A stretch of 63,309 nucleotides of DNA, the filler included, from Folioceros fuciformis (taxonomy: Eukaryota): assembly GCA_049999805.1 (NCBI GenBank). It is 5 parts of 4 records of this genome, joined end to end, with 100 filler letters (N's around TTAATTAATTAA, not from the genome) between each part and the next. Parts side by side here need not be neighbours in the genome. Positions count along the whole stretch, not along the records: positions 54,336 to 59,168 come from JBNGIO010006393.1; 4 more parts are not named here. One strand, given 5' to 3'. The first letter of the stretch is position 1. Each line of letters begins with the position of its first letter. Shown piece by piece: positions 22,151 to 63,309 of the stretch. Below the pieces are notes generated by a model. It saw only the letters and a list, made by a program, of their open reading frames with translations, did not search any database and had not been told where the DNA came from. A program made the translations under genes and the position numbers.

Positions 22151-22250
22151 NNNNNNNNNNNNNNNNNNNNNNNNNNNNNNNNNNNNNNNNNNNNTTAATT
22201 AATTAANNNNNNNNNNNNNNNNNNNNNNNNNNNNNNNNNNNNNNNNNNNN
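22151..22250. other. Assembly linker N44-TTAATTAATTAA-N44 (contig join); same linker at 36843-36942, 54236-54335 and 59169-59268
   Basis: Identical 12-mer with stops in all frames, centred in 100-nt N blocks. Genes are truncated at these points. Confidence 0.95.
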
Positions 22251-54235: not shown

Positions 54236-54746
54236 NNNNNNNNNNNNNNNNNNNNNNNNNNNNNNNNNNNNNNNNNNNNTTAATTAATTAANNNNNNNNN
54301 NNNNNNNNNNNNNNNNNNNNNNNNNNNNNNNNNNNAATGAGATGAACTCATGAACTAGAAACCATATGTTCAACCCTTTGTTGTTGAGAAATGAATGTTG
54401 TGTAAGTTCTACCCGCCCTTTCTTGATATGGGCTGCCTCTATGATAGCTAAACTAAGACTTCGGGTCCCAAGAGATATGCCGATCATTGCCTAGACCGCT
54501 CCACGCCCAAATTCAGAGTTAGCTTGCAATCTTTTCTCCTCGGTTCACTCATACACCTCAAGTTTCCTTTGCTCCATCACTCGCGTCCAAGTGCTTTGCT
54601 CCTCCTCAATGAGCTGCGTTTGTTACCCTCTCACCTAGACCATGGGATGCAATCGTCCAGACCTGCTCGTTCTTGAATGCATCGAGCTAGCCAGCCATGA
54701 GACATGCAACGCGATCTAAATCAAGGAACACGGATCTTGCTTGTAG

Positions 54747-54847
54747 GTACGGCCCAGACAGGCCCAAATACATGGGCCCGTTCTCCGGCGAGCCCCCGAG
54801 CTATCTGAAGGGAGAATACCCCGGCGACTACGGCTGCGACACGGCCG
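54747..54847 (+). pseudogene. Isolated Lhcb (LHCII chlorophyll a/b-binding) exon fragment
   Basis: [33 protein letters not shown] versus the LHCII consensus [33 protein letters not shown]. Preceded by an acceptor-like TGTAG. Confidence 0.88.
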
Positions 54848-55399
54848 ATAACTCGATAGAAGCAAGCGCGTTCGGAATCACATATTGTCCGAACAGAGAG
54901 CGCGTAGTTTAGCGAAATGCCTTTTGTACAGCATCGCTCCACAGTAATGTACACACTGTGAATGTGCCTTGCATATGAAGTTCTTTCAAACCGTGTGGAT
55001 ACTTTGTCCCACTGCCATCCATTGCATATCCCATCCCCGTGGGAAACTGAAGATATGTAATACCTTTTTGTCCACAAACTTTATAGGCATACTTTATTAA
55101 AGCTCGATATCATGTCAAAATGACATACCATCATATGCAAATGAACTATATATACTATATATGTGTGTTGTACATGATATTATTTTATCAATACAAGTAG
55201 ACGTTCTAGGTTATTTTGCAAGCTCACAATTAAGTTTATCATCTTGATGTCTTCTTGAGATTACATAGTGCATATAGATTGTGAACCTAGCTACTTGTGT
55301 TGTTACACGCTTCAAGAAAGGCAAAGGGCAAACACCTTTTGAGAGGATATTGCTTAGCTTCCCTACTAAGTGTATGAAATCGAGCTTCCTTGATCCAAA

Positions 55400-57019
55400 A
55401 TGGAGCGTAACCTTGGGGAAGACAAATTGGTGAGCGAAATTCTTAACCAAGCTAATGAAGTGATGTGGGATAAGACTTGCACAGATGCTAGTCATCAACA
55501 ACCATGCAACACAATCTGTGAACAAACCATTCGTGGCAAACCACATAGGATTGAAGTTAGCGAACGACAAAGGAGTGCAAGTCATGAAGAAGCTATAATA
55601 GCATGTAGACAACCATGGTCTATGGAACTTTATGCACAAATTAGAGATGATCAACCATGGATTGAAGCAAGTAAACAGCCATGGACAGCCTGTGCAAGGG
55701 AACAGCAATGGAATGTTGAACAACCATGGACAAGTGCAAGTGAACAGCCATGGAGTGATGGACAACCCTGGGCAGGTGCAAGTGAACTACCATGGCCGCT
55801 CATAATTGATGAAGATTCAAAATCTTCATCAGATGAACAACCTACAAATGGGCAACCATGGGCTGGTGCAAGTGAACTCCCATGGCCGCTCATAATTGAT
55901 GAAGAATCATAATCTTCATCAGATGAACAACCTACAAATGGGCAACCATGGGTTGATGCAAGTGAACTACCATGGCCGCTCATAATTGATGAAGAATCAG
56001 AATCTTCATCAGATGAACAACCTACAAATGGGCAACCATGGACTGGTGCAAGTGAACTACCATGGCCACTCACAATTGATGAAGAATCAGAACCTTCATC
56101 AGATGAGCAAGCTACAAATGGACAACCATGGTTCCAAAGCTATGAAGAAACCACTGTCAACCATGGTTTCAAATCTATGTCCATGCAATCTTATTGGGGA
56201 AATTTGCATGATGCAAAGCTGAAGGCATTATCAATGAGCAAGTGGCTGCTAGCCTACATCCATGGGGACGAGATCATGGCATTCCCACATTTTGGAAAGT
56301 GGGAAAATTGCAACAACAAGATTTCGAAGGATCTCATTGTACAGTCTTTCCTTGAATGGAAAGTCCCAATGAACAGCACAGAGATCTTAAAAGTGAAGAC
56401 CTTTTACAACATAGGCGAGAACACTTTTTGCATACTTGTGATTGACCCACTTACCGGGCAGAAATTGAAACAATGTGATGCAAGTGACATAATCTCGGAT
56501 GCATTGGTAGAGCAATGGTTGCCATTCACTTACAAAAGACCCAACACAAGAGATATCATGGAGGAAGCACTACCATTGGGGACCATATTTGAAGAGGGCG
56601 ACCAAGTGGTACAATGGGATCTTCCGTCTAGACTTATCATCAAGGATACACATTACAATGCTAGCTATCCTTGGTTTGAAACAACCAACCTTCCAGAGGA
56701 GCCAAAGGAATCGTGCACCCCATCAGGAGCAACTTGTCGAGTTGCATTTCGATTATTGGACGGTCAAGTAGTTCAACGTCGTTTTCTGTTGTCCGATCCT
56801 TCCTCTTATTTGTGGTTGTTTTGTTTGAAGCAACTGCAAGAGACTTGGTTGTTCCACAACTCCAATGAGGAGTTTTGGTTCACTGCACCAAGTAGACCTG
56901 GTGTTGCAACCAATTATACCTTGGATGCACTATCCTCAAAAACTATAGGAGAGACTGGTGTGGCAAATTGTGTGTTAACCATGGTATACAAAAAAGTCAA
57001 AATAATTACTGCAAAATAA
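55400..57019 (+). pseudogene. Divergent PUX7/UBXN7-like UAS-UBX protein with N-terminal QPW and 30-aa repeats; one in-frame TAA at 55910-55912
   Basis: ORFs 55400-55912 and 56177-57019 share a frame with no other stop. UAS-like GNLHDAKLKALSMSKWLL..ILVIDPLTGQKL and UBX CRVAFRLLDGQVVQRRFLLSDPSSYLWLFC..TIGETGVANC. Confidence 0.8.
55760..56130 (+). repeat. 90-bp coding tandem repeat x4 (GQPWAGASELPWPLIIDEESESSSDEQPTN)
   Basis: Near-identical units with a 90-nt period. Confidence 0.95.
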
Positions 57020-57793
57020 AAGCAAATTAAGCAAAGTGTTTCAACAAGGTATGCACTTTAGAGTTGCTCATTTTATAGAAGTGTAAATGTGTCAAGTATA
57101 AAAACACATTATCCAAATTTCTTAGAATGTCTCTCACTACTTTGGGAAGCAGTGTTTGTAGAGGCAACGAGTTATAATATCTTCCTTTCTCAAATTTGTA
57201 TTTTCCATATGCATCTCTTTGGCCAGCCTTTGGCCCTTTGGCCCTTTGGTGAAGAAAGCACTTTTTTTTGTGTTTAGAAAGAGGACTATCTGTGATTTTT
57301 GGCTGTTAGTAGAGGATAAGGAAATGCCTACCTCAATAAATAAAATTTTGGTTTAATTCAATTTTAAATAACTGCAAGGTACATTGCACGTGAATGCTAA
57401 AATTAGTGTCGCGAAGCAATATGGGGCAATGAAAACGAAACCGTGGATTCTCACACAGCATCAGGAGTCAGGACCTGGGCGGGTCCAATGTACCAAGTAA
57501 TGCTAGGTTCCCACGTAGCCCGAACCACCCTAAGCGATTTTTTTCCGGGGATTTTTTTCCCAGTTACGTGTGAACTATCCCATACCGGAACTCATGACCG
57601 AGAGTGGCCAAGTGCCTGAAACGGGTCATCACCGGTTCAGTACAACGGGCTGGCCTTGGCCTGTTCGCGATCAAACTCAAGTGTCCCTATGGACTTTGAC
57701 AAAGCTTAGCAAGTTTCATGCTCAACAAGCAGCTACGTTTTAGGTCGAAGCAAGCAGCTACGTTTTAGGTCGAAGCTCAGGGATTGACAATCT

Positions 57794-59168
57794 ATGGCCA
57801 ATGTGGAGCAAATGGTCGTCTACGACGTAGCCCTTGCCACACAAAGTGTAGTTTGAGACTTGTTTTATTTACTGAATTACTTTGAGGGGAGTAATGATGT
57901 TGCCATCACCGATTGCGGGCTATCTTTAAGATATGTGAGCATGGATGACCAAAGACTTCTAGATGATGCTCTTGATAACACTGTTCTTTCATGTCAACAA
58001 TTGGAGGCTGCTCTTGCAATTGCGGCCCGCACACGACAATTACCAAGGGGATTTCTAACGGGCATTCAATTATCAACGTACTATGTGAAACCCCGAGTAC
58101 AGGACATGTGGACTTTATACCTTCAAGTGGCACAAGAGGATCCAAAAAGGTTTGCCCGTTTCTATGGATTCCCATGGGCAACCTTTACGTACATTTGCAA
58201 TCTAGTTCATGACGCTGTTGACCCGACTCCAGTTCCTGGATTTGTGAACATCCTCGGGAGGATTATCTGTGTGCATAAACAAGTTCCCATTGCCTTAAGG
58301 AGACTGGCCACAGGTGATAGCTTTGTCTCTTTAGGTGACAGCTTCGGAGTGGGACAGTCAATTGCCTGCACAATTACTCACCGTTTTGTCAAAGCAATCA
58401 TATAGAAGGCTAGGCATCACCTTGCCTGGCCATCAACAGGTCAAATTGGAGGAAGTGAAGGCAGGATTCTTTGAACGACATGGCTTCATGGATTGTTGTG
58501 GTGCCATCGATGTGACCCATTTTCGGTTGGAACTGCCTGTAGGAGAAAACCAATGGGAGTATCGAGGAAGATACAAGGATCTCACAGTCGCAATGCAAGG
58601 TATCGTAGGCCCCAATAAGAAGTTCTTAGACGTAGTAACAGGCTGGCCAGGAGCTGCAAATGATACGAGAATTCTATACAACTCAGAGGTATATCACCAA
58701 GCCAATGCAGGTGCACGGCTGAATGGACCATCCATGCTCGTGGATAACGAGGAAGTGCGAGAGTATATCATCGGAGATGTTGGCTACCCTTTGCTTCCAT
58801 GGTTGATCATCCCCTTTCCTGGTCAAGGTTTGATGGCAGACAAAGAGTCTTTTGACTTCAAGCTATCCTCTTCTCGTATGGTCGTTGAGGACGCTTTCGG
58901 AGCACTGAAAAAGGTTTGGCGGATACTAGGTAGGAGGGTGTGGCGAGGCAACATCGACTACTTCAATGCGTTGACTTATGCATGTGTGCTACTGCACAAC
59001 ATTAGGATAGATCGTGGTGATGAGATAGATCCAAGAATATTGGCAGGCGAGGAGGACGACGAAGAAGATGGCATGCATCAAAACTTCATGGCAACTGGGC
59101 CCGAGAGTGCCGAAGGTCACTGGTTGAGAGACATCTTGATGCACATGTTATGGAGGAATGAGATGAAC
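57794..59168 (+). mobile_element. PIF/Harbinger-type DDE transposase (HARBI1/ALP1-like), disrupted
   Basis: HTH region IALRRLATGDSFVSLGDSFGVGQS, then GAIDVTH, GWPGAANDTRIL, IIGDVGYPLLPWLIIPF, SRMVVEDAFGALK and ACVLLHN. In-frame TGA at 57854 and a frameshift near 58400-58430. Truncated by the gap. Confidence 0.92.
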
Positions 59169-59268
59169 NNNNNNNNNNNNNNNNNNNNNNNNNNNNNNNN
59201 NNNNNNNNNNNNTTAATTAATTAANNNNNNNNNNNNNNNNNNNNNNNNNNNNNNNNNNNNNNNNNNNN

Positions 59269-62200
59269 GTCAGCTTCAGCCCTGTGGCTAGAGGAGTGGC
59301 ACATCCATTCGCATTGTCAAGACTGAATTTCTTCAAACAATCTCTGACGTACTTATACTGCGAAATAGAGAGCCTCCTTGCCTTCCTGTCTCTTGCTATC
59401 TCAATGCCGAGGCACCAGGTAAGTTCTCCTAACTCAGTCATTTCGAACTCTCTTTTAAGCAACAACTTCACCTTCTGCATCAAGCTACCCTTTCCAGTGG
59501 TTGCAGCAAGGATTAAATCATCTACATATAGCAGAAGAATCAGGAAATTCTTGCCCTCAGTCATCACATACAGCCCCGGGTCTGCATCACCTTGATTGAA
59601 GCCCATCTGCTTCAGATTAGTGTCTATCCGCTGGTTCCAGGCTCTAGGACTTTGTTTAAGTCCATACAAAGTTTTCTTTAGCTTGCACACTAATTGCTCT
59701 ATCCTTGGCTTTACATAACCCTCAAGTTGCTCCATATACAAGTCTTCTTCGAGGGTTCCATGTAAGAAAGCAGTTTTAACGTCCATCTGCTCTAAATCCA
59801 GGTCAAGATGTGCAGCTATGGCTAAAACCATCCGAAGGGTTGCGAATATGACAACTGGAGCAAAAGTGTCTGAGAAATCTATGCCAGGAATCTGTGAGAA
59901 CCCTCTCGCTACCAGTCTAGCCTTGTAGCGTTCAATGCTGCCATCAGCTTTCATCTTCCGGTGAAGACCCACTTGCACGAGATGGGTTTTCTGCCCTTAG
60001 GTAATTCCTCTAAGGTCCAAGTGCCATTCTTGATTACAGATGCGTACTCATCCTCTACAGCTTTCTTCCAATGTTTTGCCTCAGGTCCTGAATACGCTTG
60101 CTGCATAGAGACTGGTTCAGCAGAATCCGAGGTGGTTGCCTGCATGGCGTGAACAAACCATGTGGAAGGTGTTACTTCATCAGCTAGCTGTCCACCTTCG
60201 CTGTCCACCTCAGCAGATGCTGATGCCCCCACTGTGGGCACTTCCGAGGTAACTGCACCACCAACATCTGCCCTAGTTCCCTTTAACTTCTGGGCCCTGG
60301 ACACCTTTGCAGGCCTCCAGTCTTCCATTTCAAGGGGAGGCTCCTTCCAAGGCCTGTTCCTCTCACGCAAATTATATCTACCCCGCTCTTGTGAAACAGG
60401 TACATGAGCTCTGGGTGCCTGCGCTATGTGCTCTGCTGCATCCAGTCCTTCTACATATGTATCAGCTAATACATCATCATCCTCAACCGTAGCATCAATG
60501 TCATAGCCAGCATCTTCCTGGCCAGACTAATCAAAGTGTGACAACATCAAGCTGGTCTACGTCAGCATGGCTCAGCATGGGTGCCCCTCCGTCTGTATCA
60601 TCCTCGTCAGGCTCCTCTACTGGCTCAGATAAGTCAATCTCACTTCTATCTAGCTCCACACGAGCAGTAGGAGGATGCATCACATACTGTTCATCGAAAA
60701 TCACACTTCGTGCATGACTGACAATGCATGTCACAGGGTCATACAGCTTGTACGCTTTTATGCCATCAGTATAGCCTACAAAGACTAACTTATTTGCCCT
60801 GTCATGCAGCTTCGATGTTCTCTTCGGCTTGGGAACAAACGCATATGTGGGAGCACCGAAAATGCAGAGATGTCGGACTGTTGGTTTTCGTCCCCACCAG
60901 GCCTCAAATGGCGTCTGGCCAGGTAACACACGAGTAGGCAACTGGTTGAGCAGATAATTTGCAGTGTTCATGGCCTCAACCCAGTATCGTCTAGCTTGCT
61001 TCAGCAGGGCCCGAGCAGTTTCTTGCAAAAGTTGATTTTTCTTTTCTGCTACACCATTGAGCTGGGCTGTGTAGGGAACTGTGAGCTGCCTCGTGATGCC
61101 AAGATCCCGAAAAAATGCTTTAAACTCTCCTGAGATGTACTCCCCACCATTGTCAGATCGGAGGCATCGCAGATTGTGGCCAGTTTGGCGCCCACCCATG
61201 TGCAGGAAATCTTTGAAGTGCTGCAGAGTTTCACTCTTGTGCTTCAAAATATACAGGGTACAGTATCGAGTGAAATCATCGATAAACGTTAGGAAGTATG
61301 CCCCACCACCAATAGAGGGCACTGAGATGGGGCCACAGAGATCCGAATGCACTAGTTCCAGGGGTGTGGAGGCACGATGAGCACCAGTCTTGTCAAAAAT
61401 AGCCTCATGATGTTTCCCATAGATGCAGGACTCACACAACGGTAAGGCCCCCACTTGACCAGGTATCCCGTCAGTATACAAGGAACTGGCCGCCATTGCT
61501 GACAATTTTCTACCATTGGGATGTCCACAGCGCAAATGCCACAACATAGCTATCTCACCAGATGTGAGGTTGGCAAGAATACCAACAATATTCAGCATCG
61601 GCAAATTACTGCCTTCAAGACTCAGCTAGTAAATATCATTCACAGGAAAACCTTCTGCAAGGACGGCATCTGAATGCATACTATCCACAATGAGGCACTT
61701 GTCTCCCTTGAATAATACATTCAGAGTAGCGTCTGCAGTCAGCTTCCTGACAGAGAGTAGATTTTTGGTAACTGCAGGAACATGGAGAACGTCGTGCAGC
61801 ACAAGAGTCTTGCCATGATGCAAATGCAGAGTAACTGTACCCATCCCAACTATGGGTAAGGAGCTCTCATCACCCAGAAGAACAGACTGCACTTCCTTGT
61901 ACTTCTCATACTCACTGAATGAGGTCCTACTGTGAGAGATGTGCGCGGATGCTCCAGAGTCAACAAACCACGCTGCAGTATGGGTCCCAGCCGTGGTCAA
62001 ACAAATTGTAAGTATGACCAGTGGGTTCTTCTTCTTGACAGCTTGTGCAGTGTGCACCTCCGGGGAGCCTGCACCCTCTTTCTTGGGCTCACCAGCTTTC
62101 TTTTTCTGGCAATCACGAGCCCAATGACCTGGTATGCCACACCAATGGCAATTTCCAGCTTTCTTTTTACTTCCTGAGGCTTGTCCAGCAGTATTAGAAC

Positions 62201-63175
62201 CAGGTCTGCTATCCCTGGTTGAGCTCCAGCCTCCACGTCCTCTTTGGTATGGTTTGCCCCGTCCAGCAAACAAGGCCGTCTGACCTCGTTCATGCTGCTT
62301 GCCAGATTTAGAGGACAGCCTCGTGGCTTCCTCCTGCAGCAATGCCCCAACGACACCGTTAAATGTCAAGGGTTCTGCATCAATCTTCAAGGCTTTCGAC
62401 AGCCGGGCCTCCACCTTTGCCAATGCTTGCTGACCAGTGACAAACGGTCCAAAGCTGGGAGGGAGCGAGCTTAGCAACCTGCAACTCGCTTCGTAGTCAG
62501 TGATTTTCACACCCGTAGAGCATAACCTAGCTCGTGCACTTCTAAATCTCCCGATATAGTGCTCCACAGTCTCTCCTTCTGTCATTCTAAGACTGTGGTA
62601 TCTGGCTGATGCAGACATAGATGCAGCCATATCGTGGGAGGCAAACATCAATGCCAAGTGATCCCACATATCCTTCGCTGAATCTCCTGGCCCATCTGAG
62701 GCTTGTCTGATTATTTCGGGACCCAAACCTGACCGGATCAAGTTCCTAGCTCGAATATCCGCCAAAGCCCATACTGGCAGGTCAGCTGAAGTGGCATCAC
62801 TGATGGTTTTGCAGTCTCTCCGCTCACAATATGCCAGAGGTTCTTCTCTTCAAGCGCACCTTGCATGCGCATTACCCATATGTCATATTCAGCTCCAGTC
62901 ACCAAGCGGTCATTTTCCTTAAATCCGCCACTAGTAAGTGACTGCAACGCAGCCAGCATGTCATCTCTAGCTTTCTCTTCATCATCCATGTTGGGGTGAC
63001 TAAACCACGAAGTGTCTCTCTCTGACAGGTTTGTATTCACGGATGCAAGGGTAGAATCTGCATCTGTGCCCCTACTTGACTCACTATCTGACAAATCATC
63101 AACATCTATGATCCCGACTTCTTGCGCTAAATGACGAAGCCAGGCAGGTGTTCTATAGGAGTGACTCTCACTCAT
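59269..63175 (-). mobile_element. Ty1/copia LTR retrotransposon gag-pol (gag, zinc knuckle, protease, integrase, RT), degenerate
   Basis: CHWCGIPGHWARDC, WFVDSGAS, LWHLRCGH, LVHSDLCGP..FIDDFTR..LRSDNGGEY..NGVAE, KARLVARGFSQIPGIDF, QMDVKTAFLHG, LYGLKQSPRAW and LYVDD, in PR-IN-RT order. In-frame TAG at 61626 and frameshifts. Confidence 0.96.
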
Positions 63176-63309
63176 CTATCACAGCTACCAGCATCATTCG
63201 TCTCGACTTGTTTGTGTTGACAGTGGATGCATATTGTACGATTATCGTTAGCAGCCAAGGACTGACTAATTTTTGTATGTTCCAGAATGTGGGGCTGGGC
63301 CAAAACGAA

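Follow-up and report, generated by a model that had tools for sequence, protein, structure and literature searches.

The DNA stretch analysed here (the window) comprises 63,309 nucleotides, filler included, from Folioceros fuciformis (GenBank assembly GCA_049999805.1). It is a chain of small contigs rather than continuous genome. The pieces are joined by linkers of the form N44-TTAATTAATTAA-N44, a six-frame stop spacer, which were located as N runs at 22151-22250, 36843-36942, 54236-54335 and 59169-59268, and the window holds five further gaps of 100 N. Neighbourhood across linkers or gaps is meaningless. One contig carries a 539-codon reading frame in which what is, by homology and predicted fold, a UAS-UBX pair of the PUX7/UBXN7 family of CDC48/p97 adaptors follows an unrelated, repeat-rich N-terminus, and it also carries a PIF/Harbinger-type transposase gene. 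The contig and the parts of the frame are as follows.

54336..59168, no strand: contig with the UAS-UBX frame, 4,833 bp, lying between linkers; holds a unit of 4,821 bp
55400..57019, + strand: chimeric 539-codon frame, from ATG at 55400 to the terminal TAA at 57017-57019; orphan N-terminus, UAS and UBX
55610..55771, + strand: short Q(P/Q)W repeats, residues 71-124, from motif positions; 42-bp period
55760..56119, + strand: four tandem 90-bp (30-aa) units, starting at 55760, 55850, 55940 and 56030
55910..55912, + strand: premature in-frame TAA at codon 171, inside 30-aa unit 2; AAA, GAA and GAA at this place in the sister units
56189..56533, + strand: putative UAS (thioredoxin-like) domain, from PDB 2dlx (E 1.1e-5), AlphaFold2 and Foldseek
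56732..56995, + strand: putative UBX (beta-grasp) domain, diverged, from a Pfam match below cut-off and Foldseek

The frame and its N-terminal repeats

Translation and alignment of the repeat units agree with the initial annotation, which had described a single frame of 539 codons with one internal TAA opposite GAA or AAA in sister repeats. Between 55400 and 57019 this frame has two stops, both TAA, and the other five frames have 16-48. The frame had also been called AT-rich, which is true in a mild sense only: GC at the three codon positions is 0.50, 0.43 and 0.35, compared with about 0.42-0.57 for the window.

Both kinds of repeat reported for the N-terminal part, short QPW repeats and four 30-aa units, were found again, as 11 Q(P/Q)W motifs and four tandem units. 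Tandem Repeats Finder places a 42-bp unit (2.5 copies) at 55692-55795 and a 90-bp unit (4.2 copies, 93% matches, no indels) at 55758-56131. The array grows and shrinks by tandem duplication and is unstable in length: in two DNA runs of a single sample, X1 and X2, the Q(P/Q)W array differs in length from the assembly, with 24 nt more after 55691 in X2 and 18 nt fewer at 55700 in X1.

The first 250 residues contain 49 D+E against 13 K+R, and 16 Trp. No Pfam family was found in the N-terminal half (N-terminal 170 aa scanned), no relatives of the N-terminal part were found among 6,670 word-sharing protein candidates, and the ESM Atlas did not recognize it. A structure model from the single sequence was unconfident throughout, with a predicted local distance difference test (pLDDT) score of 40.4. 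The 240-residue orphan N-terminus, which is acidic and rich in Trp, Ser and Pro, is probably disordered.

We note that every 90-bp unit contains a 25-nt near-palindrome (55807-55831, 55897-55921, 55987-56011 and 56077-56101). As a consequence, an acidic, Ser-rich open frame is also present on the opposite strand (55651-56139, 162 aa).

The UAS-UBX module and its predicted contacts

Residues 241-539 (299 aa, here called the C-part) were used as the search query. Pfam matched UBX (PF00789) with E 0.02 and 15.5 bits, under the 21-bit gathering cut-off and over model positions 5-35 only, and gave no match to Thioredoxin_7 in the frame. A word-index protein search with the C-part returned no match among 1,632 candidates. 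An exhaustive phmmer search with the same query found 115 proteins at E<=1e-3, 43 of them at <=1e-10 and none at <=1e-30, the best real match having E 1.8e-18. When the 20 top-ranked homologues were scanned with Pfam, UBX was present in 19, Thioredoxin_7 (the UAS fold) in 18, UBA_4 in 16 and UIM in three. The first rank in such a list can be spurious: the top-ranked protein (P0001), the one scanned protein in which UBX was absent, is a tandem-repeat protein with six matches to residues 32-96 and no relationship to UBX proteins. P0001 and a second spurious repeat-protein match (P0076) were excluded from the alignments.

Two alignments were made, one of 22 rows and one of 86 rows; for the latter, 85 of the 115 matches were taken down the list, with short fragments and junk omitted. 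Both are colinear through UAS and UBX, at 21-37% identity to the relatives. A profile of the 85 homologues, built without the window row, matches the frame with E 3.3e-40 over model positions 109-403 of 407. One frame covers these positions unbroken, in keeping with its description as intronless. The UAS matches the UAS of human UBXD7 (PDB 2dlx) with E 1.1e-5.

AlphaFold2, given the C-part and the 86-row alignment, predicted two confident domains (residues 24-138 and 205-292 of the C-part, mostly with pLDDT >90) joined by a low-confidence linker; the mean is 77.8, and the model leans on the homologue alignment. Foldseek matched the second domain to UBX structures, namely 2cr5 (2.5e-5), 9v9o (the PUX5 UBX with CDC48A-N, 3e-5) and 3r3m, 8hrz and 5x3p (up to 9.5e-4), among them the UBX domains of FAF1, p47 and UBXD7. 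The first domain was matched to 2dlx (7.6e-5). In the ESM Atlas the C-part adjoins Thioredoxin_7+UBX clusters with a score of 0.93. On sequence homology and predicted fold, the C-terminal 299 residues are a colinear UAS and UBX pair of the PUX7/UBXN7 family.

No UBA domain was detected: there is no Pfam match, the UBA columns are gapped in the alignments, and profile positions 1-108 are unmatched in all six frames over the whole window. There is likewise no Pfam match to UIM in the frame at E<=1, and linker residues 146-180 of the C-part do not align with the EE-x-L-x-x-A-x-A-x-S stretch of the homologues. The proposal of a UBA-less, PUX7-like UAS-UBX module joined to an unrelated repeat N-terminus is thus borne out by the profile match, the AlphaFold2 model, the Foldseek matches and the missing UBA.

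The best sequence and fold matches are to the family of PUX7 (plants), UBXN7 (UBXD7; animals) and Ubx5 (yeast). The frame shares with them the C-terminal order of UAS followed by UBX, and it keeps the LPEEP...C-R-V...R-F stretch and the Pro-Gly of the S3-S4 loop. Unlike these proteins, whose organization is UBA-UAS-UIM-UBX, it has neither UBA nor UIM, has a 240-residue orphan repeat head, is intron-free and multi-copy, and is broken in the window copy. For UBX adaptors and the domains that they contain, passages of a review (PMC8181520) are used here.

None of the other sequences among the 86 aligned is as diverged as the frame. Of the columns conserved in >=90% of members it retains 58% and so loses 42%, whereas among the 81 other members that could be scored the median is 97% and the lowest value 77%; the frame came last whichever threshold was tried. 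In a FastTree tree built from all 86 rows, the frame sits on an end branch of 2.48 changes per column; the median end branch is 0.63 and the second longest 1.57. This tree was used for branch length only, 35 of its 83 inner branches being unresolved.

The surface expected to contact CDC48 is partly altered. The S3-S4 loop proline of UBX is described as crucial for entry into the p97-N pocket in a passage of the review (PMC8181520). This proline is kept in the frame (P in 73 of the 85 homologues), as is the glycine after it (70 of 85). One residue is inserted in the loop, and the residue before the proline is Arg instead of I/V/F/M (R-P-G vs [I/V/F/M]-P-G). In the first UBX hairpin the frame has Leu in place of P213 (80 of 85) and Val in place of R217 (79 of 85), both near-invariant residues. 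With the loop Arg and the loss of P213 and R217, the kept proline therefore does not imply CDC48 binding, and recruitment of CDC48 by this UBX appears doubtful. Judged by its domains, an intact copy would be a ubiquitin-blind UBX protein with an acidic head, which might at most occupy the CDC48 N-domain through its altered UBX.

The 30-aa units had been interpreted as a multivalent SUMO/ATG8-binding array. This interpretation is a reading of motifs. The core of the ATG8-interacting motif (AIM), W/F/Y-x-x-L/I/V, occurs 10 times in the protein compared with 9.4 +/- 2.7 times in 1,000 shuffles, which is the chance level. A pattern like that of a SUMO-interacting motif (SIM), with a hydrophobic core and a D/E/S run, is present in three of the four units, whereas shuffles contain 0.146 on average, with one or more in 11% of them. 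The three are counted as one event because the units are 93%-identical recent DNA duplicates; in unit 4 the motif has already been lost through an Ile-to-Thr change. No AIM or SIM motifs both beyond chance and independently conserved were found in the frame. The L-I-I core and the D/E/S run after it in the three units resemble those of SIM-bearing CDC48 cofactors and phospho-SIM proteins such as Ufd1, PIAS and RNF4, but here the likeness is a pattern match in recent duplicates. SUMO-binding CDC48 cofactors are named as a class in PMC8181520, and a passage of the same source has PUX7 contacting ATG8 through its UIM. This UIM, which in PUX7 binds ubiquitin as well, is missing from the frame.

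The 4.8-kb unit and its transposase

Two further genes and their lesions are found on the contig:

57941..59168, + strand: PIF/Harbinger-type DDE transposase gene, identified by Pfam; the frame continues over the joint of the contig ends to a TGA at 54351-54353
58403..58405, + strand: in-frame TAG in the transposase, where eight aligned homologues have E, K, D or Q
58443..58445, + strand: AAA run with one extra A, a frameshift in the window copy; X1 and X2 are without it at full depth
54691..54912, + strand: chlorophyll a/b-binding (light-harvesting complex, LHC) gene fragment, N-terminal part only, from phmmer against PDB chains

The two ends of the contig share an exact overlap of 12 bp, which is absent from the window's other two complete contigs. 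Read contigs of X1 and X2 link 59156 back to 54336 (two contigs per run, depth 360.6 and 259.2). Across the joint, the transposase frame continues for one codon to the TGA, which is also where its homologues end. The overlap, the bridging contigs and the restored transposase end together lead to a self-closing unit of 4,821 bp. This unit is a tandem array or possibly a circle. The read contigs of the main path have depths of 220-393, compared with 7-20 for diverged copies and for LHC-like contigs that share variants with X5, a run whose kind was guessed as RNA. The high main-path depth hints at tens of copies of the unit, although read-contig depth is not a copy number. Variant units, with other or absent sequence within the first 550 bases of the UAS-UBX frame, are present in the read contigs at a depth of 10-90.

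The transposase matches DDE_Tnp_4 (E 3.5e-25, full model 1-158) and Plant_tran (2.8e-11). It begins 0.9 kb downstream of the UAS-UBX frame on the same strand. There are 46 homologues, with a best identity of 51%; named plant HARBI1/ALP1-like proteins are at 33-41%. Each of the two large genes has one premature stop, the TAA at 55910-55912 and the TAG at 58403-58405, and each stop is one G/A/C-to-T step from sense. From the sequence, these single stops in both genes would read as decay.

Transposase and UAS-UBX frame differ in their representation among the reads. In the bins 56118-56441 and 56766-57089, one main contig makes up all of the depth in X1 and almost all in X2, whereas the transposase part has extra low-depth copies of 85-95% identity. 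The adaptor therefore seems to have been added late, in one subfamily, and the transposase family seems wider than the 4.8-kb unit, with the proviso that read contigs can miss rare variants. We also observed that low-depth read contigs connect 57526 to 58203 with 37 foreign letters between them, and that others start to match at about 57500. These junctions (57500-57530 and 58203) may represent further transposase-family members or derivatives made by deletion, and may mark an element end.

A search of the contig for terminal inverted repeats (TIRs) gave 36 inverted pairs, none above chance quality; the best is 17 nt long at 76%, with unmatched flank. No 3-bp target-site duplication was found in the contig around the unit's genes. 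Pfam gave no family, and hence no Myb-like ORF1, for the N-part or the upstream ORFs, and an Rfam scan of the contig gave no family.

The LHC fragment lies 0.5 kb upstream of the UAS-UBX frame. It matches 171 distinct PDB-chain sequences at E<=1, with LHCII chains at about 1e-15; Pfam was blank. High-depth X5 contigs match the LHC piece only, at 85-99% identity. X5 maps on LHC-like sequence at 54579-54955 and nowhere on the UAS-UBX frame, and has no bearing either way on the expression of the latter.

Origin of the frame

We propose, with moderate confidence, that the frame is a transposon-associated chimeric UAS-UBX copy in an amplified 4.8-kb unit, which was coding until recently and is dead in the window copy. 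A UBA-UAS-(UIM)-UBX adaptor of the PUX7/UBXN7/Ubx5 kind would have been reduced to a UAS-UBX module by loss of UBA and UIM, and this module would have gained the orphan acidic Trp/Ser/Pro-rich head, which changes length by tandem duplication. The chimeric frame would then have travelled with the PIF/Harbinger transposase and a captured LHC fragment in the 4.8-kb unit, which presumably came to exist as many near-identical, self-closing copies (a tandem array or possibly a circle). The window copy would have died through the premature TAA in the adaptor frame and the TAG and frameshift in the transposase. In this light the frame is a curious transposon-associated gene copy, and not a demonstrated new adaptor.

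The history of coding is suggested by the scarcity of stops. About one in 25 random substitutions would, by an estimate from the genetic code, yield a stop codon. At roughly 30% identity to its relatives the frame has one stop in 539 codons, and so it cannot have drifted neutrally for most of its history; the frame or its parent is, on this reasoning from sequence, a gene that coded until recently.

As to the route, anatomy, homology, extreme divergence, the self-closing joint and the variant copies in independent reads are direct observations, to which transposon-mediated or RNA-mediated capture would add an origin. The initial annotation had put forward capture by a transposable element or as a retrocopy. 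The part of this that stands is the association: the frame adjoins a PIF/Harbinger transposase in a self-closing, multi-copy unit. For lack of TIRs, a target-site duplication or a poly(A) trace, neither transposon cargo nor a retrocopy is demonstrated. An intron-free, colinear copy of the kind expected of a processed retrocopy is present (profile positions 109-403, the introns of the parent being assumed); a poly(A) remnant and flanking direct repeats were not found, there being no A-run after 57019. An AATAAA occurs near 57337.

That plant DNA transposons, Harbinger-PIF among them, capture coding DNA is described in passages of PMC8903248. The present arrangement resembles the Pack-TYPE or transduplicated copies treated there in having host coding sequence and a gene fragment by a Harbinger-PIF transposase, in many copies. 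Pack-TYPE elements, as characterized in the same passages, are non-autonomous, bounded by TIRs and usually made of fragments, whereas here the transposase gene is present, no TIRs were found, and what was captured is an almost full-length frame that has diverged far from any parent. Turning to the PIF/Harbinger transposons themselves, these typically carry two genes, a transposase and a Myb-like ORF1. The unit is similar in having an accessory frame upstream of, and on the same strand as, a DDE_Tnp_4 transposase. It differs in that the accessory frame encodes UAS-UBX and not a Myb-like protein, that TIRs and a TTA/TAA duplication were not found, and that the unit is self-closing.

Several points weigh against the explanation that we prefer. 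The route of capture is unproven, given that TIRs, a target-site duplication, a Myb-like ORF1 and a poly(A) trace were all looked for and not found. In X1 and X2, closure is seen at the joint only, since the main-depth contigs leave 54665-54838 uncovered. The in-frame TAA could be confined to a single copy or could result from misassembly: no long read contig spans 55815-55997, where the 90-bp repeats break k-mer contigs, and position 55910 does not appear among the 40 of 185 differences that were listed. Within the frame, the window differs from X1 and X2 at six positions, four non-synonymous and two synonymous; these are compatible with drift and too few to establish drift or constraint. The long open frame could mean present-day function, and other copies may be intact and functional, as X1 and X2 are without the transposase frameshift.

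The strongest of the alternatives, which we nevertheless regard as unlikely, is that the frame is a lineage-specific, fast-evolving host PUX paralogue beside a Harbinger-derived gene, amplified in tandem, with a TAA that is private or an assembly error. UBA-less UAS-UBX forms do exist: three of the 20 scanned homologues have UAS and UBX and no UBA, and the Atlas contains a cluster of 320-aa proteins with Thioredoxin_7 in 90% and UBX in 66%. The nearest named relatives of the transposase are annotated as host-like (ALP1-like/HARBI1). The domain counts for Arabidopsis point the same way, six of its PUX proteins having a UAS and nine of 16 a UBA according to a passage of PMC8181520. Against a host paralogue, the gene is packed together with a fragment of another gene and a transposase in which a TE-like DDE is retained; the unit is self-closing, of high depth and with structural variants; and the loss of family-conserved residues is the most extreme in the family.

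It is less likely again that the frame is functional transposon cargo, occupying the usual place of ORF1 and bringing host CDC48 to the transposition complex or to targets that carry SUMO or ATG8 marks. Such a role would suit a long, open frame in one amplified unit with the transposase, 0.9 kb upstream on the same strand, particularly as the transposase keeps the D, D and E which we take to be those of the DDE-domain motifs, the Pro-Gly of the S3-S4 loop is kept, and X1 and X2 have copies free of the transposase frameshift. It fits poorly with the failure to find TIRs or a target-site duplication in the contig, with the stops in both genes of the window copy, with the loss of P213 and R217 in the UBX, and with motifs that are not beyond chance. 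The bin depths and the diverged transposase copies, which point to a late gain of the adaptor in one subfamily, also speak against it.

In its boldest form, a PIF/Harbinger transposon would carry its own CDC48/p97 cofactor in place of the Myb-like gene, within a tandem or circular 4.8-kb unit; this cofactor would be a UAS-UBX protein that is blind to ubiquitin and bears a rapidly changing, acidic Trp/Ser array, so that the host unfoldase might be brought to the transposition complex or to SUMO-marked chromatin. We give this very little credence. There is an analogy in phage Mu, which relies on ClpX for disassembly of its transpososome.

A full-text search restricted to the combination of Harbinger, 'UBX domain' and transposase found no paper. 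Gene capture by plant DNA transposons is already known, as are UBX adaptors. What is unusual here is a near full-length, long-maintained and radically remodelled CDC48-adaptor module that shares a self-closing, amplified unit with a transposase. Intact copies, if expressed, would be a natural experiment in which a segregase adaptor has swapped its substrate-recognition head for a repeat array, and would show whether mobile elements tap the CDC48 system. If they are not, the frame would be a clean, young chimeric pseudogene, in a repeat unit left by assemblers as an unplaced 'circular' contig.

It is also most improbable that the unit is extrachromosomal circular DNA (a transposon-derived circle or plasmid-like molecule) and not a chromosomal array. 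The contig is self-closing, its joint falls inside the last codons of the transposase and its depth is uniformly high, but tandem arrays collapse to an identical picture in short-read graphs. A cut-and-paste excision circle would bring the two ends of the element together, and none were seen, while the variant units that bear deletions fit an aged chromosomal array.

We see even less reason to invoke a non-autonomous Helitron-like or other gene-shuffling element that strung LHC, UAS-UBX and transposase together in one orientation. Three unrelated gene pieces do lie on one strand within 4.8 kb, and rolling-circle elements can leave tandem copies; on the other hand, no Rep/helicase is found in the unit (no search was aimed at Helitron end features), and the two large genes are near full length and not fragments.

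Finally, a variant nuclear code in which TAA and TAG are sense codons, leaving both genes intact, has next to no chance of being correct, even though there is exactly one TAA or TAG per gene with no in-frame TGA, sister repeats or homologues have E, K or Q at the stop sites, and stops interrupting frames open for >=100 codons on each side number four TAG, three TAA and two TGA in the window: this tally of nine is not significant, just one such codon occurs in a Gln/Glu-rich frame, and the idea is made unlikely above all by the frame ending at a TAA where its homologues end (about eight residues past their end) and by three TAA/TAG in the next 92 codons as against one in the preceding 539.

The next contig in the window, 59269-63309 on the - strand, is a Ty1/copia element with gag, a protease barrel, integrase and reverse transcriptase. 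Two long open stretches of it are separated by an in-frame TAG at 61626-61628, and the frame changes near 60528.

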